The notes under the pieces were generated by a model. That model saw only the letters and a list, made by a program, of their open reading frames with translations, did no database searches and was not told the DNA's origin. Both the position numbers and the translations under genes were made by a program. Shown here in pieces: positions 9,225 through 28,858 of a DNA stretch of 43,937 nucleotides. Each line of letters begins with the position of its first letter. Position 1 is the stretch's first letter. The DNA is from Planctomycetota bacterium (GTDB taxonomy: Bacteria > Planctomycetota > PUPC01), in assembly GCA_003559755.1 (NCBI GenBank), contig PWKM01000150.1, forward strand, positions 1 to 43,937, read 5' to 3'.

Positions 9225-10790
9225 TCAGTCCTCGGAGTTACGTTTGTACTCGCGATACCGCTGCTCGGCCGGCGTGGGCTGCAGCGGTTCGCCCGCGTTC
9301 AGCGTACGCAGATCGATGTCGGCCCCGATGGCCGGCCAGGGCCGTTCGCCCCACCAGTCCGGCCGCCCGGCGAGGTAAAGCGAGGCGGGAAGCTCCCAGT
9401 CGGGCGGCGGGTCGTCGCGAGTGAGTGCGTCGGAACCTGACGGTTCCGCCCCCAGAAACAGGTTCTTCTCGACGTGGGCCCGCCGGCTGCCGCCAGTGAC
9501 CCTGACGCCTCTCCGGACCAGCGTGTTGAGCAGGATGTTCGCATCGTGGGAGTGGTCCAGTACCGAGATCGCCGGGCCGCCCACGTTCAAGCCCGCGTTC
9601 TCGACCCGGTTCCGGAAACTCGTGGTGTAGGGCCCGGTCGGCCCCCACCAGTCGGCATAGACAATCCGCTGAACGGTGTTCCCCTCGAACAGGTTCATGT
9701 ACGAGTAGTGGCCATGCACGGATATGTCGCAGTTGTGTGTGCAGCGGTACGATGCGTTGTAGCCGAACACGTTCCCGTTCGCCCCCTCCTTGGTCATCAT
9801 CGCGTGGCGGAGATGGTCGAAGACATTGTTCTCGATCAGGCAGTCCGTAGCCCAGCGCCCGGCGACCACCCCGTACCCGTGCCCGCCCCCGCCGTACTCG
9901 TGAGCGTGGTGCATCAAGCTGTCGCGGACGACGATGCCCCGGCTCCGGCGTATCCAGACGTGTGCCCGGACGCAATACTCGGTGTGGCAGTTGCGGACCC
10001 AACAATCCGCTCCCCGGTTTATGTGGACGATGTACGACAACTTGTCGTTCGCCCGCCGAATATGCAGGTTTTCGACCCCCGCTCGCTCGATGGCGTCGAA
10101 CACGGTGATGCGCGGGCGTAACTCCTCGCGGTACGACCGCCGCAGGGGGCGGTCCAACTCCAGCGTCGTGCCCCGGACGGCCTTTACGCGGAGCACCTGG
10201 CCGACCACATTCTGTGCCCAGGCGGCGTCCCACTCCCGGCGGGTGTAAAGCAATTCGGGGTCATTATCGCAATAGAGTTCGACATATTGGCCGGGCCGCA
10301 GGTCGGCCGGCTCCTCCAGCACCAGTTCGGTGCTGCCCGCTTCGAACCCCGATTTCAGGGGGAGGTCGCGCAGGGCTTGCCCCGCCCCCCGGCCCTGGAT
10401 GTCGATAACCGGGGTATGTTCGCCCGGAATCTCGGCTCGGAGCCGGGTCTTCTCCGGCCCGGCCCCGCGCAGGACCACGCCGGAGCGCAACCGGAGCGTC
10501 CCCTTGAGCAGGTATGTCCCTTCGTGCAGGAAGACGGCTCCCGGCGGCTCGACGGCGTCGATCGCCGCCTGGATGGCCGGTGCGTCATCGTGCTCGCCGT
10601 CGCCTCTGGCCCCGTGATGCCGGGCATCGACCCGGACCGGGACCTCCGGAATGCCGCCCTCGATGCCGGGCCGCCATCCCGGCAGCCGCTCGACCGGGAT
10701 ATCGAGGTCCCCGAGTTCGAGGCGTTCGGCATAGACGGCCGCCGCCCCTGACAACAGGATTACGCAGACGATAAGCGTTCGGCAATGCAT
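9225..10790 (-). CDS. Secreted right-handed parallel beta-helix protein (pectate-lyase-3 / glycoside hydrolase 28-like fold)
   Basis: Signal peptide MHCRTLIVCVILLSGAAAVYA. The N-terminal motif HHGARGDGEHDDAPAIQAAID...GTYLL is typical of the pectate_lyase_3 family, and His/Asn/Gly-rich beta-helix rungs follow. Confidence 0.75.
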   Translation of the reverse strand: MHCRTLIVCVILLSGAAAVYAERLELGDLDIPVERLPGWRPGIEGGIPEVPVRVDARHHGARGDGEHDDAPAIQAAIDAVEPPGAVFLHEGTYLLKGTLRLRSGVVLRGAGPEKTRLRAEIPGEHTPVIDIQGRGAGQALRDLPLKSGFEAGSTELVLEEPADLRPGQYVELYCDNDPELLYTRREWDAAWAQNVVGQVLRVKAVRGTTLELDRPLRRSYREELRPRITVFDAIERAGVENLHIRRANDKLSYIVHINRGADCWVRNCHTEYCVRAHVWIRRSRGIVVRDSLMHHAHEYGGGGHGYGVVAGRWATDCLIENNVFDHLRHAMMTKEGANGNVFGYNASYRCTHNCDISVHGHYSYMNLFEGNTVQRIVYADWWGPTGPYTTSFRNRVENAGLNVGGPAISVLDHSHDANILLNTLVRRGVRVTGGSRRAHVEKNLFLGAEPSGSDALTRDDPPPDWELPASLYLAGRPDWWGERPWPAIGADIDLRTLNAGEPLQPTPAEQRYREYKRNSED

Positions 10791-10921
10791 CGCGTCACCT
10801 CCGGATAGAACAGCACACCTCCTCAGGAGAGAGCCGTGTCGGACTCGTCATTACAGAGGATACCGTGCATTCCCGGGGAAAACAATGAACGCGGCGAGAA
10901 TGGGCGGAGCGATTCTCCGGC

Positions 10922-10951
10922 TTGACTCGGCCGGTTATAAGCTGATATACT
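10922..10951 (+). promoter_or_regulatory. Candidate sigma-70 promoter for the IPT-exbB operon (TTGACT-N18-TATACT)
   Basis: TTGACT at 10922-10927 and TATACT at 10946-10951, 53 nt upstream of ATG 11005. Confidence 0.3.
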
Positions 10952-11004
10952 TTAGTTAAGCGGAAAGGTCGCTTGAACCGTCCGGCCAACACCTTACGGA
11001 GTCC

Positions 11005-12030
11005 ATGCCCTTGAAGTCCGGATCCCGTGTCATCCCCCTTATTCTGTTCCTGCTTCTCCTGTCTCCGTCGGCGTTCAGTGCGGACGGTGCCGGGGCCGGC
11101 CCGATCATTCGAAGCGTGGAGCCGGTGATTGTCAGTCGGGACGGGGACACCCGTATCACCATCCTCGGTGCGAATTTCGAGACCGGGGCTCCGCCCGACA
11201 TCCGGGTCGAGGTTGGCGGTGAGCCCTGCACCGAGGTCGATGTCAACTGGCAGGGGACGCGGATTCTGGCACTGGTGCCCCCTTCGCGCGCCGGTGGCCC
11301 TGTCCCCGTTCGCGTTATCAATTCCGACGGTCAGTCCGTAACCGTCGAGGACGCGGTTTACTATGAAGACGGGCGGTTCTGGTCGCGGAACTGGTTCCTT
11401 CTGGGAGTCCGCGCCAAGGGGGTCTGGGAGCTGATGCGTCAGGGCGGCCTGATCATGGCGTTCTTGGGTGTGTTGTCGATATTCGCCGTCGCCTGGGCGA
11501 TCCATTGCGCGATTACCATCCGCACCAAGCGCATCATCCCCCGCGAATTCCTCGACCGGTTGAGCGGCCACATCGCCCGGCGCGAGGTCCAGGAGGCAAT
11601 TACCGCCTGCCAGCAGGAAGACGCTGTGTTCAGCCGCGTGGCGCTGGCCGCCCTCCGCAAGGCGGGCGAGCCGCCCCACAAGATTCGCGACGCCAGTCAG
11701 GCGGCCGGCTCCCGCGAGGCCTCACACCTCTTCCAGAAGATCAACTATCTGTCGAACATCGGCGTGATCTCTCCCATGCTGGGCCTGCTGGGCACGGTGA
11801 TGGGGATGCTCATGGCGTTCAGGGCGATGGGCGAGGAAGGCGGCCGGTCGATGGCCCTCGCAGCCGCTATCTACCGGGCGCTGGGGACGACGGCCGTCGG
11901 CCTGACCATCGGGATTCCCGCTATGGCCTGCTTCTACTATTTCCGGGGCAAGCTGCTCCAGGCGACCACCGACATGGAGCAGGTGGCAGAGGAACTGAGC
12001 GATGCCCTTGCCCCGGGTGAGGAGCCGTGA
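11005..12030 (+). CDS. exbB: MotA/TolQ/ExbB proton-channel protein with an N-terminal signal peptide and IPT/TIG domain fusion
   Basis: Signal peptide (LILFLLLLSPSAFSA). IPT/TIG pattern PIIRSVEPVIVSRDGDTRITILGANF...VEVGGEPCTEV...ILALVP...VPVRVINSDGQS. Then the ExbB core (GGLIMAFLGVLSIFAVAWAI; ISPMLGLLGTVMGMLMAF; ALGTTAVGLTIGIPAMACFYYFRGKL). All in one uninterrupted ORF. Confidence 0.85.
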   Translation: MPLKSGSRVIPLILFLLLLSPSAFSADGAGAGPIIRSVEPVIVSRDGDTRITILGANFETGAPPDIRVEVGGEPCTEVDVNWQGTRILALVPPSRAGGPVPVRVINSDGQSVTVEDAVYYEDGRFWSRNWFLLGVRAKGVWELMRQGGLIMAFLGVLSIFAVAWAIHCAITIRTKRIIPREFLDRLSGHIARREVQEAITACQQEDAVFSRVALAALRKAGEPPHKIRDASQAAGSREASHLFQKINYLSNIGVISPMLGLLGTVMGMLMAFRAMGEEGGRSMALAAAIYRALGTTAVGLTIGIPAMACFYYFRGKLLQATTDMEQVAEELSDALAPGEEP

Positions 12031-12458
12031 TGAACTTCAGGCAGGTCTTCGAGGAGCGGCAGGAATCGTTTCAGCTCGCTCCGATGATCGACATCGTGTT
12101 CCTCCTGCTGATCTTTTTCATCCTCAGCGGCGTGCGGGCACAGGAGGCGGAACTGCCGATGGACCTGCCCGGTGCATCCGCCTCGGTCGAACGGCGTCAC
12201 GAGCCGGAGGAAGTGGTGGTCAATGTGGCCCGGGACGGTACGCTGGTCGTCGATAACGCGGTGGTAACTGTTGACGACCTCCAGAAGAAGCTGAACATTT
12301 TGCACCGGTCGGTCACCCGCCCGGTATCTGTTGTGGTACGGGCACACCCGAGGGCCGAGCACCAATCGGTGCTCAACGTCCTGAACGCCTGTGCCGCCGC
12401 CGGCATCACCAAAGTGTCATTTGTGACGAGAGATGAGCGAACCAGGCAGCCCGGTTAA
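12027..12458 (+). CDS. exbD: ExbD/TolR biopolymer transport protein
   Basis: QLAPMIDIVFLLLIFFIL TM carrying the conserved Asp, plus a periplasmic domain (VVVNVARDGTLVVDNAVV...VVVRAHPRAEHQSVLNVLNACAAAGI). The likely ATG at 12030 overlaps the exbB TGA by 1 nt (TGATG). Confidence 0.9.
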   Translation: MMNFRQVFEERQESFQLAPMIDIVFLLLIFFILSGVRAQEAELPMDLPGASASVERRHEPEEVVVNVARDGTLVVDNAVVTVDDLQKKLNILHRSVTRPVSVVVRAHPRAEHQSVLNVLNACAAAGITKVSFVTRDERTRQPG

Positions 12459-12474
12459 CCGAAAACGTGGTCCG

Positions 12475-15036
12475 ATGGCACTCCTGCTCGCAGGCGTTGC
12501 GGCAGCATGCCTGATCTTCACCGCGGCCGCCCCGGCCGACAACGCGGCCGGCGACGCGGACATGCAGTGGGAGTTCGCCAACCGGCTTCTCCAACTCCAG
12601 TCCTATTCGACCGCCGCCCCCCAGTTCCGCAAGTTCCTGGAAGAATATCCCGAAGACCCCCGCCGCGAGGAAGCACGCTATCAACTCGCCATGTGCTACT
12701 ACGTAATGGGGGAAGACGAGCCCGACAACTACGAACGGGCATTGGCCGAGCTGGTGACACTCCGCATGGAGTTCCCGAACGGCAAGCGGTTGAACGACAG
12801 CTTATTCCGGTCAGGGCACATCAGATATCTCACGAGCGACGCAGAGGGGGCGATCGACGACCTGTCGACCCTGCTCGAGCAGGACGGGGTGGCCGCCGAA
12901 CTTGCCGTTCGAGCTCATCACTTCCTCGGTCGGGCACGCTATGATCTGGGCCAGCACAGGGCGGCCATCGAACATTTGAACCGAGTGGCCGAGGCACCGG
13001 AAGAGACCCCGCTTCGCCGGTACGCGTTGATCGTTCTTGCCAATGCCCACACCAGGAAGAGCCAGTTCGAGCAGGCGGCGAATACCATCGATACGCTCCT
13101 TGCCGACCATCCCGACCTTGCCGAGGACGAGGACCTGCTGATCAAGCTGGCCGACGCCCGCCTCGCCGTCGAGCAGTACGATCGGGCCCTGGCCACGTAC
13201 CAGCGGATCGACGACGAGAGCCCGTATCGGTTCCGCGCCGCACTCGGCATCGCCCGATCATACCTGGGGCTGGACAGAAACGCCGAGGCGATGCAGGCCG
13301 CCCGAGCGTTGCTCGATGCGTATGAGCCGACGCCTGAAACCGAAGGGATGAACATCCTCGAGCAGTGCTCGTACATCATCGGCGTCGTGCACTTCAAGCG
13401 GGAAGAATGGGCCGAGGCCGCCGCTGCATTCGAAACAATGCTGGACGCGCTCAAACAGGGCGGGATGGCGGAGGACGCCGCCTACCGGCTGTGCTGGTCC
13501 TACTATCACCTGGGCGAGGAACGGGCCCGGAACCTGGTTGCCGCCAGCGCCGCTTTCCGGCGGATGTTCCCGGCCAGCGACTACATCGACGAGGTCGTCT
13601 TCCTGGCCGGCGAGGGCCACCGGGCACTGGGCGACTTCCAACAGGCGATCTCCTATTACGAACGAATCGAGGAGCACGACCCCAACTACCACGACGCCCT
13701 CTATCGAATCGCCTACTCCTATCACAGGGCGGGCCGGACCGAGCGGGCCGCCAGGGCGTACGATGCGTTTGTCGAGGCACAGAAAGAGCACCGCCGGGCC
13801 CAGGACGCCCTGTACGAGGCCGCCGCACTCTACCAGGGACTCGAACGGTATGAACTCGCGGCCGAACGCTATCATCGGTTCATCGAAAAGGCCCCACGCG
13901 GCCCCGAACAGGCCGAGGCGATGTATCAGCAAGGCGTCTGCTACGCCAGGATGGGACGCTTCGACCGGATGGACGAAGCCCTCACCGGGTATGTCGAGAG
14001 ATACCCCGACGGCGAACACATCGGCTCCGTTCACTATTGGCTGGCTCGACATCACCGGATACAGGCCGACACGCACTCCAACGACGGCGAGATCGACGCC
14101 GCCGTCGCCGCCTACCGACGGGCCGAGCAGAGCTTCCAGCGGGCCCTCGAACACGACCCGCCGGAAGACAAGACCATTCGGCGCTCCATCGCCGAATTGC
14201 GATACCGGCTGGGCGAGACGCTGAATCGCGGGGCAACCGAGGCGGCCGAGGCAGCGGAACAGGCCGACGACGCCGATACAAGGGCGGCTCTGGAGGAAAA
14301 GAGGGACCGGCTGGCCCGGGAAGCCGCCGACACGTTCGGCAAATCCGCTCGCGACTTCCTCGACCTCGCCAGAGAGCATCCCGAACTGATCGGTTCGGAG
14401 GACATCTACTTCTGGGTGGGAAGCTGGTTCCGGCGGCACGAAGAACCCGAGTCCGCCATCGAGGCATTTCTGGCGTTCCGCGAACACCGCCCGGAATCGG
14501 AGAACCTGGACCGGGCGCTCTACCAACTGATCGACCTGCACGGCTCACTCGAACCGGCCAACCACGAGGCGGTGATCCAATACGCCGATGAACTGATCGA
14601 GAAGCGCCCGCAGAGCGAGCTGGTGCTTCGCGGCAGGTTCGACAAGGCCGAGGCCCTGTTCGCCCTGCGGAGATACGATGAGGCCCGGCCGCTATACCGC
14701 GAGGTGTCGCGGGAAGGCGGGGGCGTACTGAGAATCGCATCGGACCTCAAACTCGGCCATATCCACCTCGCCAAAGAGGAATACAGCGAGGCCGTGGGCC
14801 AGTTTGCCCGCGTTGGGCTGCTGTATCAGCACGACACATTTACCCCCGAGGCGCTCTACTTCGCCGGGCGGGCGCGAGCCCGGGCGGGCGGTCCACGCGA
14901 TATCCAGGAAGCGGTCAACTTCTGGCAGCAGTTGGCGAGGAACTATCCCGCTTCGCAATGGACGGCCCGGATGAGAGACGACCTCGAGCCCCTCGGTTAT
15001 CACGTGGCCGAAAATGGAACGATCGAGAAGAAGTGA
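12475..15036 (+). CDS. Secreted tetratricopeptide-repeat (TPR) protein, about 850 aa
   Basis: Signal peptide MALLLAGVAAACLIFTAAAPA, then Ala/Tyr/Leu/Glu-rich 34-residue repeat patterns throughout (e.g. AEAMYQQGVCYARMGRFDRMDEAL). The ORF track starts at 12433 but ATG 12475 avoids overlapping exbD. Confidence 0.8.
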   Translation: MALLLAGVAAACLIFTAAAPADNAAGDADMQWEFANRLLQLQSYSTAAPQFRKFLEEYPEDPRREEARYQLAMCYYVMGEDEPDNYERALAELVTLRMEFPNGKRLNDSLFRSGHIRYLTSDAEGAIDDLSTLLEQDGVAAELAVRAHHFLGRARYDLGQHRAAIEHLNRVAEAPEETPLRRYALIVLANAHTRKSQFEQAANTIDTLLADHPDLAEDEDLLIKLADARLAVEQYDRALATYQRIDDESPYRFRAALGIARSYLGLDRNAEAMQAARALLDAYEPTPETEGMNILEQCSYIIGVVHFKREEWAEAAAAFETMLDALKQGGMAEDAAYRLCWSYYHLGEERARNLVAASAAFRRMFPASDYIDEVVFLAGEGHRALGDFQQAISYYERIEEHDPNYHDALYRIAYSYHRAGRTERAARAYDAFVEAQKEHRRAQDALYEAAALYQGLERYELAAERYHRFIEKAPRGPEQAEAMYQQGVCYARMGRFDRMDEALTGYVERYPDGEHIGSVHYWLARHHRIQADTHSNDGEIDAAVAAYRRAEQSFQRALEHDPPEDKTIRRSIAELRYRLGETLNRGATEAAEAAEQADDADTRAALEEKRDRLAREAADTFGKSARDFLDLAREHPELIGSEDIYFWVGSWFRRHEEPESAIEAFLAFREHRPESENLDRALYQLIDLHGSLEPANHEAVIQYADELIEKRPQSELVLRGRFDKAEALFALRRYDEARPLYREVSREGGGVLRIASDLKLGHIHLAKEEYSEAVGQFARVGLLYQHDTFTPEALYFAGRARARAGGPRDIQEAVNFWQQLARNYPASQWTARMRDDLEPLGYHVAENGTIEKK

Positions 15037-15061
15037 CACGCCGGAGGCCGAATCGAGGGCG

Positions 15062-16807
15062 ATGCTGCTGCAACGCCCGCCGAGCCGCCCGCGTACCCGC
15101 TCGAAATCGTGGCTCGGCCTGCCGCTCATCATATCGATCTTCTTCCACGTCCTGCTCCTGGCGTCCGTCGAAGGACTTCACCTGTTAGAGATTCTGCCAC
15201 CGGCACCCGACGCGGCGGAGGCGCGGACTGTCGAGGTGTCCACCGCCGTAGCAGACCCAAGCAGGCCGGAACCCATCGGCCCGCCCGAGCCCACGGAGAG
15301 CATCTCGCTGCTGCCCGAGACGCCCGAACTCACCCCCGAACTGTTCCCGAGAACTCGGCCACGCGGCCCACAACGGCCCGAACCGGACCGCAAGCCGATC
15401 ACCCGCTACCCCGAAGAGGAACTCCCGGTCATCGCTCTGCCCGAACTTTCGGACCGAACCCGCCTGCTCCTCCGCGACGGCGAACTCGATATCGTGGACC
15501 CCGGCCGGGGGATCGAGGTTTACGAGCCGAGCGAGCGGCGCATTGAGGAGACGCCGCCCGTGCAAATCAAGGCGGAACCCCGGCTCCAGGCCGATACCGA
15601 TGTGCTGGCAGGAGCCATCCGCCCGACCCAGCCCCGCCGGGCCGCGACGAGCCCCGAGCCACCCACCGCGACCACACCCGAGCGCACCCACCGGCTGGAC
15701 CCGCCGCGAATCGAGCCCGCCACCGATCTCAGCCCCGGAATCGAACAGCTCTTCGCCCGCGACTTTGACCCCGTCGAGGCGGAGCCGCTGCCCCTGAACG
15801 TCCAGATCGACGTGTACGCCGAGCCGGAGAACGATGACCGCTTCTTCCGCCTGACCATCACCGAAAGCGACGACCTGCAGTTGCCCGTTCTCCAGAAGAA
15901 CATCCTGTTCGTCGTCGATATCTCGGCGAGCGTCCGGCAACACATGCTCCGGGCCATCCAGTCGGCGGTCCGCGACAAGGCGGCGGAGGGGTTCAACGAG
16001 GGGGATCGATTCAACATGGTACGGTTCAGCGAGCTCACCTTCAAGACGTTCGCCGGCTTCGTACCCGCGACCGCCGAGAACATCCGCCGGGCGGCCCGCG
16101 TCATCCGCAAAGAGTCGGGACAGGTCCGCACCGACGTTTATCAGGCACTGGTATCGGTTGTCGGGGACCTGCCGAGCGAGGGGGAGGACGCCCACCAGCC
16201 CACCCACATCTACCTCATCAGCGACGGCGACGCCACCACCGGCGTCCGCGACCTGCGCCGCATCGTCACCGACCTGGGCGATGTGACCCGGCCCAACCAC
16301 AGCATCTCGGCCCTCATCCCGGGGACCGAGCACGGCGATCGCTACCTGCTGGACCTGCTTACCTACCGGAACCGCGGGATGTTCGCCCACGCACGCAACA
16401 CCGACGACGTGGGCAGGAAGCTCGGCGAGCTCCTCCGCCGATTCCGCTACCCCATCCTCGTGGATATCCGAGCACGATTCGGCAGCTTCCGGGAGGCAAG
16501 AGTCTATCCCGAGCAACTGCCCGACCTCTACCGAGGTGAACCCATCGTCGTCCACGGCCGGTGCCGGCCGGGCGACACCATCGCTCTGGGAATTATCGGT
16601 CGGACTGCCGAGGGGCCTCGCCAGTTCGTCTATTCGCACCGACTGCCCGAGGTGTTGACCAACGACCCGACCATCGCACGCGGCTGGGCACGCGGCAAGA
16701 TTCACCACATCGCCGCTCTGATCGCCATCGGGGACGATCAGCCCGAATATCGGGAAGAGATCGACCGGCTGAGCGAACGCTACGACCTGGAATCGCCGTT
16801 CAAATAA
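15062..16807 (+). CDS. TonB/TolA-type signal-anchor plus Pro-rich rod fused to a von Willebrand factor A (vWA) domain
   Basis: TM LGLPLIISIFFHVLLLASV with an S-x3-H motif. About 200 aa Pro/Glu-rich linker. vWA domain with MIDAS residues (VVDISAS ... RTDVYQAL ... LISDGDATTG) and DRFNMVRF, typical of inter-alpha-trypsin-like vWA. The ORF track starts at 15014; ATG 15062 is the likelier start. Confidence 0.8.
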   Translation: MLLQRPPSRPRTRSKSWLGLPLIISIFFHVLLLASVEGLHLLEILPPAPDAAEARTVEVSTAVADPSRPEPIGPPEPTESISLLPETPELTPELFPRTRPRGPQRPEPDRKPITRYPEEELPVIALPELSDRTRLLLRDGELDIVDPGRGIEVYEPSERRIEETPPVQIKAEPRLQADTDVLAGAIRPTQPRRAATSPEPPTATTPERTHRLDPPRIEPATDLSPGIEQLFARDFDPVEAEPLPLNVQIDVYAEPENDDRFFRLTITESDDLQLPVLQKNILFVVDISASVRQHMLRAIQSAVRDKAAEGFNEGDRFNMVRFSELTFKTFAGFVPATAENIRRAARVIRKESGQVRTDVYQALVSVVGDLPSEGEDAHQPTHIYLISDGDATTGVRDLRRIVTDLGDVTRPNHSISALIPGTEHGDRYLLDLLTYRNRGMFAHARNTDDVGRKLGELLRRFRYPILVDIRARFGSFREARVYPEQLPDLYRGEPIVVHGRCRPGDTIALGIIGRTAEGPRQFVYSHRLPEVLTNDPTIARGWARGKIHHIAALIAIGDDQPEYREEIDRLSERYDLESPFK

Positions 16808-16824
16808 GGGCGGGGAGAACCATC

Positions 16825-17370
16825 ATGAAGCGAAAGTGGTCGGTCCTGTTGCTGACGGTCGTACCCGGTCTCGGCCACATTTACGCCGGCCGCCAGTGGC
16901 GGGGGCTCCTTCTCTTCGGCCTGTTCGCCATCGCGATCAACGGCTATGTCGCCGGCACCGAGATGACACGGTCGGAGAACCGGACTATCCGCGAACGGGG
17001 CCGGCAGGTCCGTGTGGCGTGTACCGTCGTGGCGGTCGGGGTGTGGATATTCGCCCTGGTTGACATCGCACGCCTGTCGAAGCAGTTCGAATCGAAGCCG
17101 CGTCGCGAGCGGAAGGACTACCATTTCAAGCGCGGCCTGCACCACTACCTCGCCGGAACATTCGAGAGCGCCCGGGGCGAGTTCCTCACCGTGCTGAAGC
17201 TGGACTCGATGGACGCCGACGCCCGCTACTACCTGGGGATGACCCACCAGGCGCTGGGCAACAAACGCCGGGCGGCAAGGGCGTTCAAACGATGCCTGTC
17301 CGCGGACACCGAGAAAAAATGGAACTGGGAAGCCAAAGCCCAACTGAAGAAAGCCCGGAAAACCGGATAA
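16825..17370 (+). CDS. Small membrane protein with a C-terminal TPR motif
   Basis: ATG 16825 preceded by GGGGAGAA. Two TM helices (WSVLLLTVVPGLGHIYAG...LLLFGLFAIAINGYVAG; VACTVVAVGVWIFALVDIA), then a TPR-like segment (GLHHYLAGTFESARGEFLTVLKLDSMDADARYYLGMTHQALGNKRRAARAFKRCL). Confidence 0.7.
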   Translation: MKRKWSVLLLTVVPGLGHIYAGRQWRGLLLFGLFAIAINGYVAGTEMTRSENRTIRERGRQVRVACTVVAVGVWIFALVDIARLSKQFESKPRRERKDYHFKRGLHHYLAGTFESARGEFLTVLKLDSMDADARYYLGMTHQALGNKRRAARAFKRCLSADTEKKWNWEAKAQLKKARKTG

Positions 17371-17532
17371 CAAGGACACAGATGGCCGAACCAAGAGTGC
17401 GAACGAACGGCTGCATCGACCGCGATATGCGGGGCGGCGAACCGGCCGGACCTGCTCTGCGCGCCTGCCGACCGGCACGGGACCGCAGCACGATTATCGA
17501 ACGCCCGACGCACTCCAGACCCGAGGGACCCA

Positions 17533-18906
17533 ATGCCTAAAGCCCGTACCATCCTGTGGATTATGACCCTTCTTCTCATCGTCCTGATGTGCACGCAATG
17601 GGGCTGGCACATCGGAGGCGACGTGCGCGAGATCCCGCGCGGCGACCGGGTGGACCTCCACCGCACCGGCGGGGTGCATATCACCCCGGGCTACGTGCTC
17701 CTGGTGGTCACATTCCTGGCGTGGGCGGCGTATGTCGTCGTGACGTTCCGCTTCTTCGAGATACGGTTCCCCGCGCTCCCCGTGTTCGTGCTCCTGGCTG
17801 TAGTGGTCGTCTCGACCATCTACACCCGGCAGTGGGGCGGCGGGGTCGGCGGGATCGCCCAGTTAGGCGGGGTGTTCATCGGCGGATGGTGCATCTTCGC
17901 CAATTGTATCGACACCCGACAGCGGCTCCGGGCCGCCATCGATCTGTTCAGCATCGTGGTCGGGGCGATCGTCGTCTTCGCACTGTGGCAATACCGTGCC
18001 GAATCGGATGCAGGAAATGCGTTCGCCATCGCGGGGACGTTCGGCAACCGGAACGTGCTCGGCGCCTTTTTCGCGTCCGCCCTTCCCTTCCTGTTCGCCC
18101 TCGGGCTGTACGAGGAGCGCATCTGGCAGCGGTTCGCCCTGGTGCTGCTGGTCGCCCTCGGCGCGGCGGTCACACTGTCCGCCGGGGCGCTCATCGCCAT
18201 TGCGGTCGCCTGCCTCTTCGTCGCTGCTCTGAAATCGCGGACCGCCCTCCTGGGCACGGTCGTCGCCATCACCCTGGGGCTGACCCTCGTGCCCGGATTC
18301 CTTTCGCTCCCCCGACACACCGACGTGGTGGTCAGCTCGGCCTCGCCATACCTGTACAACAACTATCTCGACCGGCGGACTCGTACCGGCGAGCCGATAC
18401 CGGGGCACGACGAGTATGACACGGCGGTGCGATACAAGCGATGGTTCGCGGCGGCCAGGAGCGTCCAGGGCACACTGAGCAAGACGCTGTGGGGTGCCGG
18501 CCCCGGGCGATACAACGATACGGTCCGCCCGGAAATCCGGCTGGTACACACCCGCCGGGCCGACACCGACTCGGTGCCCGATTTCAACATCAGCGTCGCC
18601 GAGCCGGACTCGTTCAACATGTACCTGGTCACCTTTGTCGAGTACGGTCCGTTTGCGTTCGTCGCCCTGCTGTGGCTGGGGATGTGGCTGCTCGGGCGGA
18701 ACCTTCGCGGTTTCCGAGAGGTCAAGGACAGCACCGGGCGTGCCCTGGCCGTCGGCTCGGCGGCGGCCGTACTGGGTGCCGGAATCTGTGCCGTCTTCTC
18801 CAGCATCCTCGTTCGCGGGGTGGCCCTGCCCTTTCTTTTCGTGGCCCTTTCTGGTATTCTCTGGCCACGGTTGCCGGATACCGCTCCGAAGGATGGAGCC
18901 CGGTGA
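17533..18906 (+). CDS. O-antigen ligase/polymerase (Wzy_C)-like multi-pass membrane protein
   Basis: 457 aa with about 10-12 TM helices. The central segment GNRNVLGAFFASALPFLFALGLY...LVALGAAVTLSAGALIAIAVA resembles the O-antigen ligase family core. Confidence 0.6.
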   Translation: MPKARTILWIMTLLLIVLMCTQWGWHIGGDVREIPRGDRVDLHRTGGVHITPGYVLLVVTFLAWAAYVVVTFRFFEIRFPALPVFVLLAVVVVSTIYTRQWGGGVGGIAQLGGVFIGGWCIFANCIDTRQRLRAAIDLFSIVVGAIVVFALWQYRAESDAGNAFAIAGTFGNRNVLGAFFASALPFLFALGLYEERIWQRFALVLLVALGAAVTLSAGALIAIAVACLFVAALKSRTALLGTVVAITLGLTLVPGFLSLPRHTDVVVSSASPYLYNNYLDRRTRTGEPIPGHDEYDTAVRYKRWFAAARSVQGTLSKTLWGAGPGRYNDTVRPEIRLVHTRRADTDSVPDFNISVAEPDSFNMYLVTFVEYGPFAFVALLWLGMWLLGRNLRGFREVKDSTGRALAVGSAAAVLGAGICAVFSSILVRGVALPFLFVALSGILWPRLPDTAPKDGAR

Positions 18907-18941
18907 CCGCCGTTTCTCGCCCGAATGCGACGAGGTGATAA

Positions 18942-19973
18942 ATGGTCCGTGTCGCCGTTACCGGGGCCAGCGGCCTTGTCGGGGAGTATCTGCTCCGACT
19001 GCTGGTTGGGCACCCGGAAGTTGAACTCACCTATCTGAGCTCGAACAGCTCGGCCGGCCAGCCCGTTTCCGACGTGCTGCCGCCGCTCCAGGGGCAGCTC
19101 GCGATCGACTTCCTCGCGCCAAAGCCCGACGAGATCGCTCAGGCGGCCGACGTGGCCATCCTCGCCCACAAGTCATCCGAATCGCTCGAACTGGCCCCGC
19201 AGTTGCTCGACGCAGGGCTCAAGATCATCGATATCGGCGGCGAGTTCCGGCTGAAGGACCCGGGCCTGTATCGCCAGTGGTACGGGCAGGAACACACCCA
19301 ACCCGTGCTCCTCGCCGAGGCGGTCTATGGGCTGCCCGAGCTGTACCGCGAGCAGATTCGCTCGGCCCGGATCGTCGCCAACCCCGGCTGCTATCCGACG
19401 TCGGTGCTCATCCCGCTCGTGCCGCTGCTCCTGGGCGGGCTCATCGACCCGGCCGGCATTCGCGTCAGCTCGGCGTCCGGGCTGACCGGTGCGGGCCGGA
19501 CCAGCGGGAAGCTGTTTATCGACGTGAACGAGGACATGCGGGCGTACGCCGTGGCCGGCCACCGCCACCGGCCCGAGATGGAGCAGGAGCTGGCCGCCGC
19601 CACCGGGCAGGATGTCCGCCTTACGTTCGTCCCGCACCTCATACCGGTCAACCGGGGTATCTTGTCGACCGTGTTCGCCCAACCGACGGCGGGGACCGAC
19701 CCCGCCTCGCTGCGCCGAGCGCTGGCCGGGGCGTATGCCGAGGAACACTACGTCCGCGTCCGGCATTCCGGCACCGATGTCCGGCTGGCCCATGTCGTGG
19801 GGACCAACTACTGCGATATCGCGGTCGAGTGCCAGAAGGAGTCCGACGGGGTGCTCGTCTTCTCCGCCCTCGACAACATGCTCAAGGGCGCGTGCAGCCA
19901 GGCCGTTCAGAATATGAACCTGATGTTCGATCTAGATGAGTCCGCCGGAATCGGCGGGCTGGGAGCATGCTGA
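18942..19973 (+). CDS. argC: N-acetyl-gamma-glutamyl-phosphate reductase
   Basis: MVRVAVTGASGLVGEYLLRLLVGHPEVEL Rossmann N-terminus. Catalytic-Cys motif ANPGCYPTSVLIPLVPLL. C-terminal DNMLKGACSQAVQNMNLMF. Confidence 0.93.
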   Translation: MVRVAVTGASGLVGEYLLRLLVGHPEVELTYLSSNSSAGQPVSDVLPPLQGQLAIDFLAPKPDEIAQAADVAILAHKSSESLELAPQLLDAGLKIIDIGGEFRLKDPGLYRQWYGQEHTQPVLLAEAVYGLPELYREQIRSARIVANPGCYPTSVLIPLVPLLLGGLIDPAGIRVSSASGLTGAGRTSGKLFIDVNEDMRAYAVAGHRHRPEMEQELAAATGQDVRLTFVPHLIPVNRGILSTVFAQPTAGTDPASLRRALAGAYAEEHYVRVRHSGTDVRLAHVVGTNYCDIAVECQKESDGVLVFSALDNMLKGACSQAVQNMNLMFDLDESAGIGGLGAC

Positions 19974-24044: not shown

Positions 24045-24075
24045 GGGTCTGCCTGCGGGCAGGCCCTTTTCTATT
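24045..24075 (+). terminator. Rho-independent terminator after the zinc-ribbon gene
   Basis: GGGTCTGCC-TGCG-GGCAGGCCC forms a 9-bp stem with one G-U pair, followed by TTTTCTATT. It sits between convergent genes. Confidence 0.6.
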
Positions 24076-25738
24076 CGGTATCCGGTTCCGGCGGCCGCGT
24101 GAGGAGGCGGGCGTCCGACCATCCGAGTTCGTTGCAGAGATCGACGACGCGCACCACCCATCGGTAGAGTGTTGCCGGCTCGGGCTGGATGGTGACCTGG
24201 ACATCGTCGGCGGTTCGTCGCAGGCCCGCGATGTATGTGAGGCGCTCGCGGAGCCAGATCAGGTCCCCGGTCTCGGAGGGATCACTTTCCGACAGGGTGA
24301 CGGTCACGGGCGGGATTTGGGCGGGGTGGCCGTCGCTGACGCCGATGTGGATATGTATCCGTTCGATGCGTGCCGGCCTCTCGACGTCGCGTCTGGCGAG
24401 CGGACCGCGGTTCCAGTCCAGGCGCAGGGCCATGTGATCGCGTGTTCTCACCTCGAGGGGTTCATGCGTCGCTCCCTCGATCACTTTCGTCTCGGCCGGT
24501 TCTGCTTCCTGGATGGCGTGGAACACTTCGGCCAGTTGCAGTGCGGTCGTATCCTCGTCGATGATGACGGAGAATCCCTTGTCCGAATCGCCCTCTTGCC
24601 AGAGGGTTGCCAGTTCTTGTGCGGTGACCCGTGCGCCGTCGATCTGGATACGGTTTTCCTGGAGCTCGGCGGTCAGACCGACCTCGAGGTCTTCCTTGAG
24701 TCGGACGGTTTCGAGCGATTCGACCTGTATGCCGCTCCGGTGGATGGCATCGAACGCCCGGTATATTGCGTCGGGCGGCGCCCCGTGGTCGATTGTGATG
24801 CGGAGCGAGTCTTCGTCCTCTTTGTCCCGAATATCTCGAAGTGTGTCGAGCAGGAACATCGGTTCGCGCTCGTTGAGCAGCACGCGCCCGCCCCGGGTGA
24901 TGTCCATGTGGATGACCTGGCCCCCGAACTCGTTTTTGGGGGGCGGTTCCGGCAGTTCGGCGGGTTTGATGATGAGGGTGACCTCGGTGCCTACCGGCGG
25001 GACGACGTCGGTGTTGACGACGAACGCCCGGTCGTCGGCCCCGATTTCAAGCGGGAGGTCAAGCACGGACATCGGGTCACGGAACACGGTGACCACGGAT
25101 AGCTCGCGGTTCGCCCAGTAGATTTCCCTTCCGGTCTGGGGCTCCTGGACAAATCGGCTGCCCAGGAATACGTAATGGGTTCGGCACATCAGCCGTTGGT
25201 CGATCTGGTTCCAGACCAGGTCTTCCGAGCGGTACGTCTTGGGGCCGTCCTCGGTCTCGAACCGGACGTAGATGTTCACCGGGTCCCCGGAGGGGGCATG
25301 CTCGGGGTCCCCCTGGAATCGCGGCCCGGCGTCGGCCGGTGCGGGCTTCAGCCCGAGGGCAAGCAGGAACATATGGAGGTCGCTCGGCTGGAGGTCGAGC
25401 GCGATGATGCTCTCGTATTCTTTGCCGCCGCGTGCACAGGCGAGCAGTTCGATGGGGCCTTCATCCAGGCAGATTTCCCCGTCGACCTCGATGCGTCTCT
25501 CCTCGGGGTAAAGCCGCGCCCCGCGCCTGCTGATGACCTTCCGGTCGGCGATTTCGGGCAGGGCTTCGGGGTCCTCGATCTCTTCCCGCTCGACGATGTC
25601 ATCCGCTTCGGGCGCCTCGTCGGCGTTCGCGGAGCCGGCCCAGATGGCCGGGGCCAGGGCGGCAAGAATGAGAGCAACGGCAAGGCGGGGTCCCATCCGC
25701 AAGAATGTCAACTTTCGGGCTGAATTTAACGTTCTCAT
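24071..25738 (-). CDS. Secreted protein: YdjY-like N-terminal domain followed by three ExbD-periplasmic-domain-like repeats
   Basis: Signal peptide (LAVALILAALAPAIWAGSANA). YdjY-like segment (EVDGEICLDEGPIELLACARGGKEYESIIALDLQPSDLHMFLLALGL). Three segments fit the ExbD C-domain pattern (e.g. IHMDITRGGRVLLNE...LRITIDHGAPPDAIYRAFDAIHRSGIQ; VQVTIQPEPATLYRWVVRVVDLCNELGW). It is the last gene of the TPR-exbBDD operon. Confidence 0.7.
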   Translation of the reverse strand: MRTLNSARKLTFLRMGPRLAVALILAALAPAIWAGSANADEAPEADDIVEREEIEDPEALPEIADRKVISRRGARLYPEERRIEVDGEICLDEGPIELLACARGGKEYESIIALDLQPSDLHMFLLALGLKPAPADAGPRFQGDPEHAPSGDPVNIYVRFETEDGPKTYRSEDLVWNQIDQRLMCRTHYVFLGSRFVQEPQTGREIYWANRELSVVTVFRDPMSVLDLPLEIGADDRAFVVNTDVVPPVGTEVTLIIKPAELPEPPPKNEFGGQVIHMDITRGGRVLLNEREPMFLLDTLRDIRDKEDEDSLRITIDHGAPPDAIYRAFDAIHRSGIQVESLETVRLKEDLEVGLTAELQENRIQIDGARVTAQELATLWQEGDSDKGFSVIIDEDTTALQLAEVFHAIQEAEPAETKVIEGATHEPLEVRTRDHMALRLDWNRGPLARRDVERPARIERIHIHIGVSDGHPAQIPPVTVTLSESDPSETGDLIWLRERLTYIAGLRRTADDVQVTIQPEPATLYRWVVRVVDLCNELGWSDARLLTRPPEPDTE

Positions 25739-25806
25739 ATGCGTGCCTGTCCGCTTCGGCCGGCCATTCGTGCTAATCAATGCTGCTGTTCGCCGGTTCG
25801 TGTTTC

Positions 25807-26325
25807 TCAGCCGTCTGGCGGGTCACGTGGGAGCGACCTTCTGGAGGCGGCAAAATTGACCTCCTGGAACCCTTCGCCGCGACATATGGCGACGGCCTTG
25901 ATGACCCATCTGTACTTGACGGCGGGTTCGACCTCGAGTATGACCGGTACATTCTCCCGGACCTGCGGGTCCTGGGCGTGCTTGGCGATTTCCTGGTGGA
26001 GCGTTCTGAGTCCACCGAGCACGGTCCGATCGACATCGATTTGGATGCCGTCGTCCGGCGCGCGGGTCACCTCGTATGTCGGCTCCGCCTCGGGGTCCCC
26101 TCCCCGTGTGCGGATCGTCACCCTGATCTCCGGTTCGATCTCGGCCACGGTCAGTTGGTCGGGCGGGCCGGCCTCCTGGGGCAGGTAGGCCTCGAGCTCG
26201 CCCTCGGGGACGCGGAAGCGGGTGACCACGAAGAAGAAGATCAACAACTGGAACACGATGTCGATCATCGGGGTCATCTGGAGCTTTGAGTCTTCGCCCG
26301 CATTCATGCCTCGCAGGAACTTCAT
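25807..26325 (-). CDS. exbD: ExbD/TolR biopolymer transport protein (paralogue 2)
   Basis: LQMTPMIDIVFQLLIFFFVV TM with the conserved Asp, plus a periplasmic domain (VPVILEVEPAVKYRWVIKAVAICRGEGF). Confidence 0.9.
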   Translation of the reverse strand: MKFLRGMNAGEDSKLQMTPMIDIVFQLLIFFFVVTRFRVPEGELEAYLPQEAGPPDQLTVAEIEPEIRVTIRTRGGDPEAEPTYEVTRAPDDGIQIDVDRTVLGGLRTLHQEIAKHAQDPQVRENVPVILEVEPAVKYRWVIKAVAICRGEGFQEVNFAASRRSLPRDPPDG

Positions 26326-26329
26326 ATCT

Positions 26330-26836
26330 TTATCCCTCTGCCAATCGAACGCTGAACGACATTTTATAGAATCGCATCCGGGCCGCCCGTTCCATCACGT
26401 CCTGAACGGTCCGCCATTCGACGTTTCTGTCCGCCTGGACCAGGATGGGCTGTTCGGATGGTTCGTCCCCCAGCCCCCTGTACTGCCGTTCGACGCGGAA
26501 GTACCTGAGGACCTGGTCCCTGGCCTCGGCCCCCGACTCTCTGAGGTCGTACATCTGCTGTACGCGGCCCTGGATATAGACGGTGTCCATCATCCTGACC
26601 TGGCCGTCTGCAGGGTCAACGCGCTCGCGGGGGATGATGCTGATGATAATCCTGTCGGGGATATTCGTCTCTTCCCGTGCCTGGGCGGCGTAGGGGAGTT
26701 CGAGTCCCTCGATGTGGTCATAGGAGATGATTTCCGAGACCACCAGGAAGAAGATGAGGAGCAGGAACACCACGTCGATCATCGGCGTGAGGTTCATCTC
26801 CAGCTCTTCTGGATGAAATCGCTTGGTGACGTGCAT
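26330..26836 (-). CDS. exbD: ExbD/TolR biopolymer transport protein (paralogue 1)
   Basis: MNLTPMIDVVFLLLIFFLVV TM with the conserved Asp. Its stop lies 4 nt from the start of the next exbD. Confidence 0.9.
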   Translation of the reverse strand: MHVTKRFHPEELEMNLTPMIDVVFLLLIFFLVVSEIISYDHIEGLELPYAAQAREETNIPDRIIISIIPRERVDPADGQVRMMDTVYIQGRVQQMYDLRESGAEARDQVLRYFRVERQYRGLGDEPSEQPILVQADRNVEWRTVQDVMERAARMRFYKMSFSVRLAEG

Positions 26837-26842
26837 GGTGTG

Positions 26843-27610
26843 CTACTCCACAGGTCGGAATCGGGCCATCAGTTCGCCGCTGATGGCGCCCACTTCCAGA
26901 ACGATCTTCTGGACGCGGTTTTTGAAGAACTGGTAGATGCACATAACCGGGATGGCGACGATGAGGCCGAGGAACGTGGTGACCAGTGCGAGCTGGATGT
27001 TTTGTGCGAGGTCGGCCGGTTTCGGGGGGACGTCCGGGTTTGCGATGGCTGCGAACGCACGGATCATGCCGAGCACGGTCCCCAGCAGCCCGAGCATGGG
27101 CGAGATGTTGGCGATGAGTGAGAGGTAGCTGATCTTCTGTTGCAGATCGACTGCGGCCTCTTCTCCCGCCTCGCTCATTGCCTCTTCCATCTGCTTATAA
27201 CCGGCGTTCACCCGGGAGAGGCCGGCTGCGATCACGTTACTGAAGAAGGTCGGCTGTTCCTCGCAGACCATGATGGCCTCCTCATACTCCTCCTGCTCGA
27301 AGCATTCTTCGACATCGGCGAGCAGTTCCGGCGGCATGATTACGCCGCGCCGGATGGTCAGCCCGTGCTCGATGGCCAGGGCGATGGATATGAGGAACAG
27401 GAAGATGATGATGTAGCCGATCAGCCCACCGGCCTGGATGACCTCCAACACGCTCATCGTCTCGGTTGGGTCTTCCTCCGGCTCGGCCGCGGGCGCCGGC
27501 TCCTCGGCCGCCTCAGCGACCATCACGACCGGGGCGCAGAGAAGCAGAACGGCTATTATCAGGATGATGGCGAATGGCTTCCAGCTTCCGGCCCTCCAAC
27601 AATCAGGCAT
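26843..27610 (-). CDS. exbB: MotA/TolQ/ExbB proton-channel protein with N-terminal signal peptide and acidic Pro-rich linker
   Basis: AAGGAGAG RBS 8 nt before ATG 27610. Core motifs: GGLIGYIIIFLFLISIALAIEHG, ISPMLGLLGTVLGMIRAF, ALVTTFLGLIVAIPVMCIYQFFKNR. Confidence 0.9.
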   Translation of the reverse strand: MPDCWRAGSWKPFAIILIIAVLLLCAPVVMVAEAAEEPAPAAEPEEDPTETMSVLEVIQAGGLIGYIIIFLFLISIALAIEHGLTIRRGVIMPPELLADVEECFEQEEYEEAIMVCEEQPTFFSNVIAAGLSRVNAGYKQMEEAMSEAGEEAAVDLQQKISYLSLIANISPMLGLLGTVLGMIRAFAAIANPDVPPKPADLAQNIQLALVTTFLGLIVAIPVMCIYQFFKNRVQKIVLEVGAISGELMARFRPVE

Positions 27611-27699
27611 ACCAGATCTCTCCTTAAAACGAGCCACAATTTCGGGGCCGATGGCTTTTTGGCATCGTGCCCCACGAATTCATTATCCGGTCGATCCGC

Positions 27700-28842
27700 T
27701 CAGCCGCCCAGTTCTCTGAGGCCGGTCCTCGCGTCATCGACCACATCGCTGTCCGGAAAATTCTCGATCAATTCTCGATAGAGGCGACGTGCCCGGGTCC
27801 TGGCGGCGGGGCCGCCGATCTCGACCGAGGCCGTTGCCGCGCCGAACATCGCTTTTGGCCTTTCTCTGCGCGCCTCTGGGTATAGTATATAAACTCTCAT
27901 GTAGGAAAGCACGGCCTGGTTCAGATTAACCTTCTTCTCCGTCTCGTCCTCAGCCCGGCGGCCGGCCTCGAAATGGAGATCGCCCAGTGCCATGTACAGG
28001 CGGAGGCGGTTGGCCCTCTCGGTAATTCTGTCCTCGATGCTGTCGATCCACCGGGTGGCATCGTCCGCCCGCCCGAGGTCGACGAGTACCTGGCCCTTCC
28101 CCACCAGCGCCCGCTGGTAGATATTGCGCACCTGGTCGAGATCGTGTTCCAGGTCGCCCGGGTTTCGGAGTGTCTGTCCGATGTCGTTGACCAGACGCTC
28201 ATAGATGCCCATCGCTTCCTCTTGATTTTCGACTATCAGATGGGCCTCTGCCTGGCCTTCCAGGGCCACGAGCTCCCAGAGCGGGCCATGTTCTGCCATC
28301 TTCCGGTAGGTCTCGATCGCCTGTTCGTGCTGACCGAGTTCGCGGTGGGCCCGGGCCTTGGCTTGAATGGCTTCGAGAACGTAGAAGGAATTGGGGTGTT
28401 CGTCCAATACGACATCGAACTTTTCCAGGGACTCCTCGGCTTTGCCCGTCTCGAGCAGGATTCGCCCGAGGATGACCGCCCTGTATGGCTGATACCAGAA
28501 GCTTCGCGGTTCCGGTTCCACCCCACGCTCGATGAGCGCGAGCGCTCGTTCCCATTCTCCGTCTTCCACCTGCCGGATGGCCTGGGCGAACTGGCGGGCA
28601 TCGCCCCAACCGATCTCTACCACTTCGCGGGATGGGACGGTCTGGATCTCGGCTTGCCTTTCCTGGAAAGCGCGGTAGGCGACGTGCTCGGTTGTGGCTT
28701 CGGTGACGGTAATCTGGCGGACTCTGCTTCCATCGCGTCGGGTGATCGTGTCCGGCATCCTTGGGTCTTCCGCTGCGGCTGCATCGGGGATCGTCAGCCC
28801 GACAACAAGGCCCAGCACGGCTATGCTGAGTAGATATCGCAT
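27700..28842 (-). CDS. Secreted TPR-repeat protein (380 aa)
   Basis: AGGAGG RBS (28851-28856) before ATG 28842. Signal peptide MRYLLSIAVLGLVVGLTIPDAAAA. TPR-like repeats (e.g. FYVLEAIQAKARAHRELGQHEQAIETYRKM). The upstream extension of the ORF to 29079 overlaps the preceding gene and is rejected. Confidence 0.8.
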   Translation of the reverse strand: MRYLLSIAVLGLVVGLTIPDAAAAEDPRMPDTITRRDGSRVRQITVTEATTEHVAYRAFQERQAEIQTVPSREVVEIGWGDARQFAQAIRQVEDGEWERALALIERGVEPEPRSFWYQPYRAVILGRILLETGKAEESLEKFDVVLDEHPNSFYVLEAIQAKARAHRELGQHEQAIETYRKMAEHGPLWELVALEGQAEAHLIVENQEEAMGIYERLVNDIGQTLRNPGDLEHDLDQVRNIYQRALVGKGQVLVDLGRADDATRWIDSIEDRITERANRLRLYMALGDLHFEAGRRAEDETEKKVNLNQAVLSYMRVYILYPEARRERPKAMFGAATASVEIGGPAARTRARRLYRELIENFPDSDVVDDARTGLRELGG

Positions 28843-28858
28843 GGTTGTGGCCTCCTGT

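Follow-up and report, generated by a model that had tools for sequence, protein, structure and literature searches.

A five-gene operon of Planctomycetota with an ExbB/ExbD-type motor, TPR proteins and an anchored vWA protein as a probable variant of the vWA motor-driven force transducers

The window analyzed here is the full length of a 43.9-kb contig (C317) of a 2.9-Mb Planctomycetota metagenome-assembled genome (MAG; G000, 352 contigs, 89.75% complete). At positions 11005-17370, calls of open reading frames (ORFs) and of Pfam and NCBIfam domains place five co-directional plus-strand ORFs, which we refer to in their order as g1 to g5, with g6 as the downstream neighbor (Table 1). They encode the two subunits of a TolQ/ExbB-TolR/ExbD-type motor, a large secreted TPR protein, a membrane-anchored von Willebrand factor A (vWA) protein that is the candidate energy transducer of the system, and a small membrane protein with a TPR. 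The original prediction, made from the DNA letters alone, had described this block as a Ton/Tol-like motor accompanied by a TonB-type anchor fused to a vWA domain and by TPR partners. The domain searches, the SxxxH motif of the anchor, the AlphaFold2 (AF2) model of g4 and the synteny agree with this reading, and the domains named for all five genes were recovered with Pfam and NCBIfam.

Table 1. Features of the five-gene block and its immediate surroundings (window coordinates)
Feature	Position	Strand	Support
Promoter candidate, sigma-70-like, TG-extended	10922..10951	+	TTGACT-18-TATACT, 10/12 matches; consensus match only
g1: signal peptide + IPT/TIG + TolQ/ExbB	11005..12030	+	MotA_ExbB 7.8e-25, TIG 5.2e-11 (Pfam)
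g2: TolR/ExbD subunit	12030..12458	+	ExbD 5.9e-26 (Pfam)
g3: secreted TPR scaffold, 853 aa	12475 (alternative start 12433)..15036	+	TIGR02795
g4: anchored vWA transducer candidate	15062 (alternative start 15014)..16807	+	VWA, VWA_2, VWA_3 (Pfam)
g5: small membrane protein, DUF6677 + TPR	16825..17370	+	DUF6677 1.6e-5, TPR_2 7e-7 (Pfam)
g6: Wzy_C/O-antigen-ligase-like polytopic membrane protein	17533..18906	+	Wzy_C E 2.2e-4, under Pfam cut-off

The genes are tightly packed. The stop codon of g1 and the ATG of g2 overlap in a TGATG at 12028-12032, with an AGGAG 6 nt upstream; g2 and g3 are 16 nt apart, or overlap by 26 nt if the earlier g3 start is used; and gaps of 25 nt and 17 nt separate g3 from g4 and g4 from g5, respectively. 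These junctions were re-read directly from the sequence and bear out the predicted packing by overlaps or gaps of at most 25 nt, and the start choices for the operon genes agree with the gene calls in orthologous loci. The divergent intergenic region upstream of g1 (214 nt) holds the promoter candidate, which is the sole plus-strand site found in 10500-19200, and the 162-nt gap between g5 and g6 (17371-17532) is without a terminator-like site.

At the level of sequence, g1 and g2 are a complete stator with conserved catalytic residues. In the pore of g1, T264 and G263 do not vary, conservation of T295/T296 reaches 90% or more and the GLLGT motif is kept, while the transmembrane (TM) helix of g2 carries Asp21 within 'APMIDIVFLLL'. 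The matches of g1 in PDB were TolQ (1.1e-9), ExbB (2.8e-7) and a plexin IPT domain (2e-5), and the PDB sequence matches of g2 were to ExbD only (3.5e-8). An IPT/TIG beta-sandwich at residues 34-120 (the domain spans about 33-120) follows the signal peptide of g1 and, in the AF2 model (predicted local distance difference test, pLDDT, 89.9), is joined after four residues to a long helix (125-171) leading into TM1. Therefore, five Ig-like domains would sit at the periplasmic mouth of the pentamer. Such IPT-ExbB fusions are limited to about 31 protein clusters at an identity of at least 39%.

The profile hidden Markov model scores of the two subunits lean slightly toward TolQ/TolR and lie far under the equivalog cut-offs: 71.8 bits for g1 against TolQ (TIGR02796, cut-off 221) and 53 bits for g2 against TolR (TIGR02801, cut-off 127.3), compared with 36.7 bits against ExbB (TIGR02797, cut-off 206.2) and 42.7 bits against ExbD (NF008429, cut-off 216). 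In a tree of ExbB proteins, whose references were E. coli TolQ and ExbB and whose reach does not extend to the placement of AglR or GldL, the two E. coli proteins grouped together on a long branch, and not with g1; therefore, g1 is orthologous to neither. The ExbB proteins of operons with the order Q-R-TPR-vWA can form one clade, with a weak support of 74/18 and in 76% of the bootstrap trees. They are separate from the motors of clusters encoding a YdjY protein (96/97), one of which lies further downstream in the window, and from the motor on contig C298 of the same genome.

The fourth gene encodes the transducer candidate. Its AF2 model consists of a TM helix (19-38), a disordered, proline-rich linker of ~200 amino acids (about 43-223, pLDDT <50 over most of its length) and a globular head (pLDDT >90 over most of 240-575). 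The anchor reads S25-IFF-H29, and these two residues, which align in register with S16/H20 of E. coli TonB and S18/H22 of TolA, are at least 90% conserved in 21 orthologs (alignment A1). The SxxxH motif is also present in 15 of 17 more distant orthologs, including those from Verrucomicrobiota and Lentisphaerota. In the head, the residues of the metal ion-dependent adhesion site (MIDAS), D286, S288, S290, T357 and D388, are invariant in the 21 orthologs of alignment A1.

The head includes a beta-sandwich and a helical C-terminus beyond the vWA fold. Its best fold match is ITIH1 (Foldseek, 1.8e-19), and the structure of BatB (3ibs) follows at rank 49. In sequence it matches ITIH4 (phmmer, 4e-11) and also ITIH1, with a weak match of g4 to E. 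coli YfbK (BLASTP E 0.004). The nearest non-orthologous relatives of g4 are bacterial VIT-vWA proteins, one of which is a paralog on contig C102. The globular part (about 240-575) is thus shared with the VIT-vWA proteins (ITIH, PDB 6fpy and 9c4f; E. coli YfbK); however, these are secreted and start with a VIT domain, whereas g4 starts with a TM helix and a long disordered linker. This SxxxH helix and proline-rich linker occupy the exact place of the VIT domain of the paralogs.

Two segments of the linker stand out. The first is a nearly invariant block, R115-YPEEELP ... L129-S-x-R ... R138-x-G-E (RYPEEELP...LSxR...RDGEL). In two orthologs (P0008 and P0010), ~90 residues of the linker are duplicated (columns about 225-320 of alignment A1), giving a second RYPEEELP...LSxRS...VRDGEL copy, and this duplication suggests that the block may be a functional unit. 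The second is the conserved segment 54-62, RTVEVSTAV (RxxTIExGTV in orthologs), which resembles PISVTMV of TonB and IDAVMVD of TolA and is a putative motor box.

The remaining genes encode the companions of the motor and of the anchored protein. The N-terminus of g3 is a hydrophobic signal, and the protein matches the tol_pal_ybgF model TIGR02795 in six stretches (1.2e-49, 167.8 bits, cut-off 90.1) and the BamD model TIGR03302 in five stretches (115 bits). In g5, an N-terminal DUF6677 TM region precedes a C-terminal TPR, and positive residues flank the third TM segment of the protein on both sides. At the family level, every locus has an ortholog of g5 after g4, as do L035, L037, L039, L040 and L041 at the class level, and class-level loci have a g6-like gene after g5; both g5 and g6 follow g4 solely within the class. 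The description of the next gene downstream as O-antigen-ligase-like stands in part, with the Wzy_C match of the window gene falling under the cut-off and its orthologs carrying Wzy_C matches. The gene g6 is thus a conserved downstream neighbor and may be an accessory of the operon. In two relatives, a gene of the SNF family (sodium:neurotransmitter symporter) lies between g5 and the Wzy-like gene (L011, 12317-14380; L013, 12833-15157), and a 113-aa remnant of such a gene is found in a third (L012, 12346-12687), at the place of the 162-nt gap in the window.

Comparative synteny, one of the checks that the original prediction had called for, revealed that the order of the core is kept across the class and in other families and phyla. 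About 20 full-length orthologous protein clusters of g4 were recovered at 40-64% identity, all metagenomic, and the five-gene order is kept in relatives' contigs of 11-98 kb. The relatives carry the label Planctomycetota, with 'Candidatus Brocadiia' given for one. Downstream of the five-gene block comes the Wzy_C-like gene, in some cases preceded by the SNF transporter, with argC, purM and trpF beyond it. A strong g4 ortholog is present in 7 of 9 sampled genomes of the same family and in 13 of 14 other sampled genomes of the same class. The ExbB-ExbD-TPR-vWA core, without the IPT domain, is also found in the Planctomycetota families f6 and f72 and, outside the phylum, in MAGs labelled Verrucomicrobiota, Lentisphaerota, Hydrogenedentota and Nitrospiraceae, and the order of motor, TPR and vWA genes is conserved in more than 20 loci. 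The scores of VIT-vWA paralogs, 1e-25 to 1e-32, reach into the range of the weakest syntenic g4 orthologs (1.2e-29 in G001), which keeps a phylum-wide count of g4 orthologs from being exact. One relative (G400, a single contig, C1, rated 67% complete) has two g4-like copies, near 1278522 and 5076635 (L037 and L036). One of the two is followed by g5- and g6-like genes, has no motor or TPR gene detected upstream, and is an open frame without the N-terminal anchor.

The block was further compared with the two established systems that it most resembles. A parallel with Tol-Pal had been drawn from the gene order, and it holds as an analogy and not as membership. Both combine, in one operon, a stator powered by protons, a transducer that is anchored by SxxxH and spans the periplasm, and a TPR protein of the CpoB/YbgF type, and the TolQ score of g1 is slightly above its ExbB score. 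However, the block has no TolA/TonB C-terminal domain, no TolB and no linked Pal gene, and g3 comprises six modules in 853 aa, whereas CpoB has one. With Ton, it shares the stator and the SxxxH-anchored, proline-rich transducer; in contrast to TonB, the vWA/MIDAS head of g4 would bind its partner via metal coordination and not via strand addition to a TonB box.

The absence of TolB/Pal, TonB_C and TonB-dependent transporters (TBDTs) that had been noted for the window holds there, and for TonB_C, the TBDT barrel, Plug and TolB it extends to the whole genome. A genome profile search found no match to TonB_C, the TBDT barrel or Plug, and no TolB, the single TolB_N match being a CsgG-family lipoprotein; two OmpA-domain genes of this genome are on contigs other than the window. 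TonB_C is found in none of 10 genomes of the window's family (f1, 81-93% complete), compared with 281 of 401 sampled Planctomycetota genomes, and the family, judged from these matches, seems to have lost canonical TonB. TolB_N was matched, weakly, in 1 of the 401 genomes. In addition, two relatives of high completeness (G001, one contig, 99%; G172, 100%) carry the ExbB-ExbD-TPR-vWA core and have no TonB_C, TBDT or TolB_N in the genome. Flanking tolB-pal or TBDT genes, which the original prediction would have taken as the sign of an ordinary system, are absent from the operon in both. Together with the phylum counts, these two genomes indicate that the block is an independent system and not a fragment of Ton or Tol-Pal. 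The CsgG-family lipoprotein, which was considered as a TolB and rejected, is encoded on contig C177 (5410-6111, L010; Pfam 5.8e-29, the family of the curli-type secretion channel), adjoins a 918-aa HEAT-repeat protein, and has weak matches to the models of TolB_N and LpoB.

It could still be argued that a conventional Tol-Pal or Ton system is present, with its partner genes elsewhere or lost to contig breaks, as g1 and g2 score best against the TolQ/TolR models, g3 passes the YbgF/CpoB cut-off, and the genome is incomplete and spread over many contigs. Against this, the block lies in the middle of its contig without such neighbors, the TolQ and TolR scores are far from their cut-offs, the genome, family and phylum counts point the other way, and the 99-100% complete genomes carry the core without Ton or Tol partners. 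We therefore regard a conventional system as hardly credible.

Other systems share single ingredients with the block. The Bat operon has membrane-anchored vWA proteins (BatA/BatB) that are encoded together with a TPR protein (BatC); however, it is without ExbB/ExbD, the BatC model reached 30.2 bits here against a cut-off of 175, and no MoxR ATPase or DUF58 gene was found in 8.5-23 kb of the window. Surface-adhesion or gliding machines of the Agl-Glt kind likewise pair a TolQR-like motor with large TPR proteins and with CglB, a vWA adhesin, and an Agl-Glt-like role has been offered as speculation for vWA transducers in general (PMC12204202). For the block studied here such a machine is very unlikely: the GltC model (cut-off 450) gave 21.6 bits, the genes of the block have no further Glt-like matches, and the vWA protein is predicted to be anchored in the inner membrane, not to be an outer-membrane lipoprotein. 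Two further candidates were rejected. An anti-phage motor system (Zorya and the like) found no PADLOC match for any of the six proteins, and for a Fibrobacter succinogenes cluster, considered as a parallel, the papers describe an ordinary TonB/ExbBD with no vWA mentioned.

The closest counterpart is a class of vWA motor-driven force transducers that was reported in June 2025 with Tichowtungia aerotolerans as the seed (Williams-Jones et al. 2025, Mol Biol Evol 42:msaf138; PMC12204202). Its proposed members begin with a TM helix that bears an SHLS motif, continue with a disordered linker containing a motor box and end in a vWA domain resembling YfbK; tolQ/tolR-like genes and a TPR gene accompany them, and they were reported in Proteobacteria, Planctomycetes, Verrucomicrobia, Bacteroidetes and Rhodothermaeota (PMC12204202). 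In the Planctomycetes-Verrucomicrobia-Chlamydiae (PVC) group, the published arrangement is TPR, tolQ, two tolR and vWA (PMC12204202). The operon shares with this class the S...H anchor, the proline-rich linker, the YfbK-like vWA, the TolQ/TolR-like and large TPR proteins, and the absence of TonB_C. It probably belongs to the published class, yet forms a distinct variant of it.

To compare the operon with a locus of such an arrangement, we used Kiritimatiella glycovorans (CP010904, locus L068), where the order is TPR (951 aa), a 282-aa protein, ExbB, ExbD, ExbD and a 437-aa protein. Among the four motor clusters of G000, the ExbB, the second ExbD and the TPR protein of this locus match g1, g2 and g3 best, and the TPR proteins are homologous with an E value of 3e-15. 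In the 437-aa protein, an SMIIH anchor is combined with a vWA domain that is degenerate (ISAHNS) and has no Pfam match, whereas the head of g4 has an intact MIDAS and its beta-sandwich and helical extension. The operon differs further in that its TolQ carries a secreted IPT/TIG domain and in that conserved DUF6677-TPR and Wzy-like genes are added. New in the operon are the IPT-TolQ fusion, the single TolR, the gene order, the MIDAS-intact head, the RYPEEELP motif and the DUF6677-TPR and Wzy-like companions.

Taken together, these features make it probable, at roughly three in four, that the block belongs to the vWA motor-driven force transducers, as a variant in Planctomycetota in which the stator pulls g4. 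Several observations weigh against this interpretation: (i) g4 departs from the SHLS motif at its L and S, where it has V36 and H40; (ii) the AF2 monomer model gives no strand at the putative motor box; (iii) the order tolQ-tolR-TPR-vWA-TPR, with one TolR, differs from the published PVC order with two; (iv) BLASTP finds no similarity of g4 to the 437-aa transducer of Kiritimatiella, and the match of the g4 family profile to its vWA core is weak (hhalign E 2e-4, probability 46%); (v) some g4-like proteins are without the anchor His or without motor genes detected within ~9 kb (L042, L047, L049, L050 and L063, and also L044 and L053); and (vi) the class itself has been proposed from genomes, by computation only (PMC12204202).

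Under the proposed mechanism, g1 and g2 would form a proton-driven stator of the TolQ/ExbB-TolR/ExbD type, presumably in a 5:2 ratio, whose periplasmic mouth would be ringed by the five IPT/TIG domains, one per g1 subunit. The SxxxH helix of g4 may dock at the edge of the stator, probably together with the RTVEVSTAV segment as a short strand. Proton flow would then pull the ~200-residue linker and load the periplasmic ITIH/YfbK-like head, whose MIDAS might bind an acidic residue of a putative partner linked to either the outer membrane or the wall. The TPR proteins g3 and g5 would act as scaffolds and may bind the acidic RYPEEELP block of the linker.

Motor and vWA genes could also be mere neighbors, with g4 as a static ITIH- or Bat-like adhesin or scaffold and with the stator energizing the YdjY cluster or the Wzy-like protein. 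Motor-less VIT-vWA paralogs are indeed abundant in the phylum, the one on contig C102 among them, and the g4-like genes of L044 and L053 stand without a detected motor. In addition, four relatives have the YdjY cluster directly upstream of the block on the same strand (L011, 1-5244; L013, 1-5248; L014, 42-4331; L061, 940-2495). However, the SxxxH helix and linker that replace the VIT domain recur across phyla, conserved alongside the motor genes, and the genes of the block are overlapping or 16-25 nt apart. The YdjY cluster, for its part, has its own ExbB/ExbD and is not adjacent to the block in L012. A chance neighborhood is thus quite improbable. In relatives, the YdjY motor cluster consists of a 1040-aa protein, a TPR protein, ExbB, three ExbD and the YdjY protein, and where it lies directly upstream, a 117-aa opposite-strand gene separates it from the five-gene block. 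Its counterpart in the window (24071-31987; secretin/YdjY, TonB-less) lies 6.7 kb downstream of the block and is inverted, and the second ExbB/ExbD set that had been predicted in it is real (ExbB, 26843-27637; ExbD, 26330-26836 and 25807-26325).

The remaining motors of G000, which encodes four ExbB genes, are relevant to a further possibility, namely that g4 serves Ton-like import, replacing TonB by opening a non-TBDT outer-membrane channel or by pulling a surface-bound substrate. The family is without TonB_C, the genome keeps its four ExbB motors, and three of the four motor clusters adjoin vWA proteins. On contig C298 (5335-11036, L006), a second transducer candidate of 305 aa combines an SLLVH anchor with a Ser/Pro-rich linker and a vWA domain; it adjoins ExbB, two ExbD and a 985-aa helical-repeat protein, and is flanked by a leucine-rich repeat protein and a Ser/Thr kinase. 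On contig C278 (3-4027, L007), an ExbB with its own signal peptide and one ExbD are followed by a secreted protein with vWA and PapD-like domains, which is at least 935 aa long and runs off the contig. However, the operon coexists with TonB and TBDTs in families f3 and f5 and in G395, and in G400 and G395 the TonB and TBDT genes are far from the operon. This coexistence argues that the operon is not a simple Ton substitute. The block has no conserved gene for an outer-membrane channel, and the near-universal presence in the class and the argC/purM/trpF neighborhood fit envelope maintenance better, leaving an import function unlikely.

For the force transducer proposed here, the near-universal presence in the class, the housekeeping neighborhood and the coexistence with Ton favor a role in envelope maintenance over nutrient import. 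More specifically, the operon might be the stand-in of Planctomycetota for Tol-Pal, a suggestion that arises because TolB was found in 1 of 401 genomes. It would then be a proton-powered, metal-dependent MIDAS tether by which growth of the wall and division are coupled to the outer membrane or a surface layer, together with a six-module CpoB-like scaffold and the Wzy-like protein. In the TonB-less family of the window, g4 might also serve the YdjY cluster, which several relatives have directly upstream. This more specific proposal is tentative, and we consider it rather unlikely.

To our knowledge, TonB and TolA were for a long time the only proteins known to deliver proton-motive energy to the outer envelope from the inner membrane. 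The vWA-headed transducers, a class known by computation, would be a third route for this energy, if the reading is true. The operon described here offers several handles on such a route: the intact MIDAS, the acidic linker motif as a candidate TPR-binding peptide, the Ig-like collar on the stator, and a TonB-less bacterial family, of which G000 retains four ExbB motors. The operon is also relevant to how the envelope may be maintained, and division carried out, in Planctomycetota without detectable Tol-Pal.

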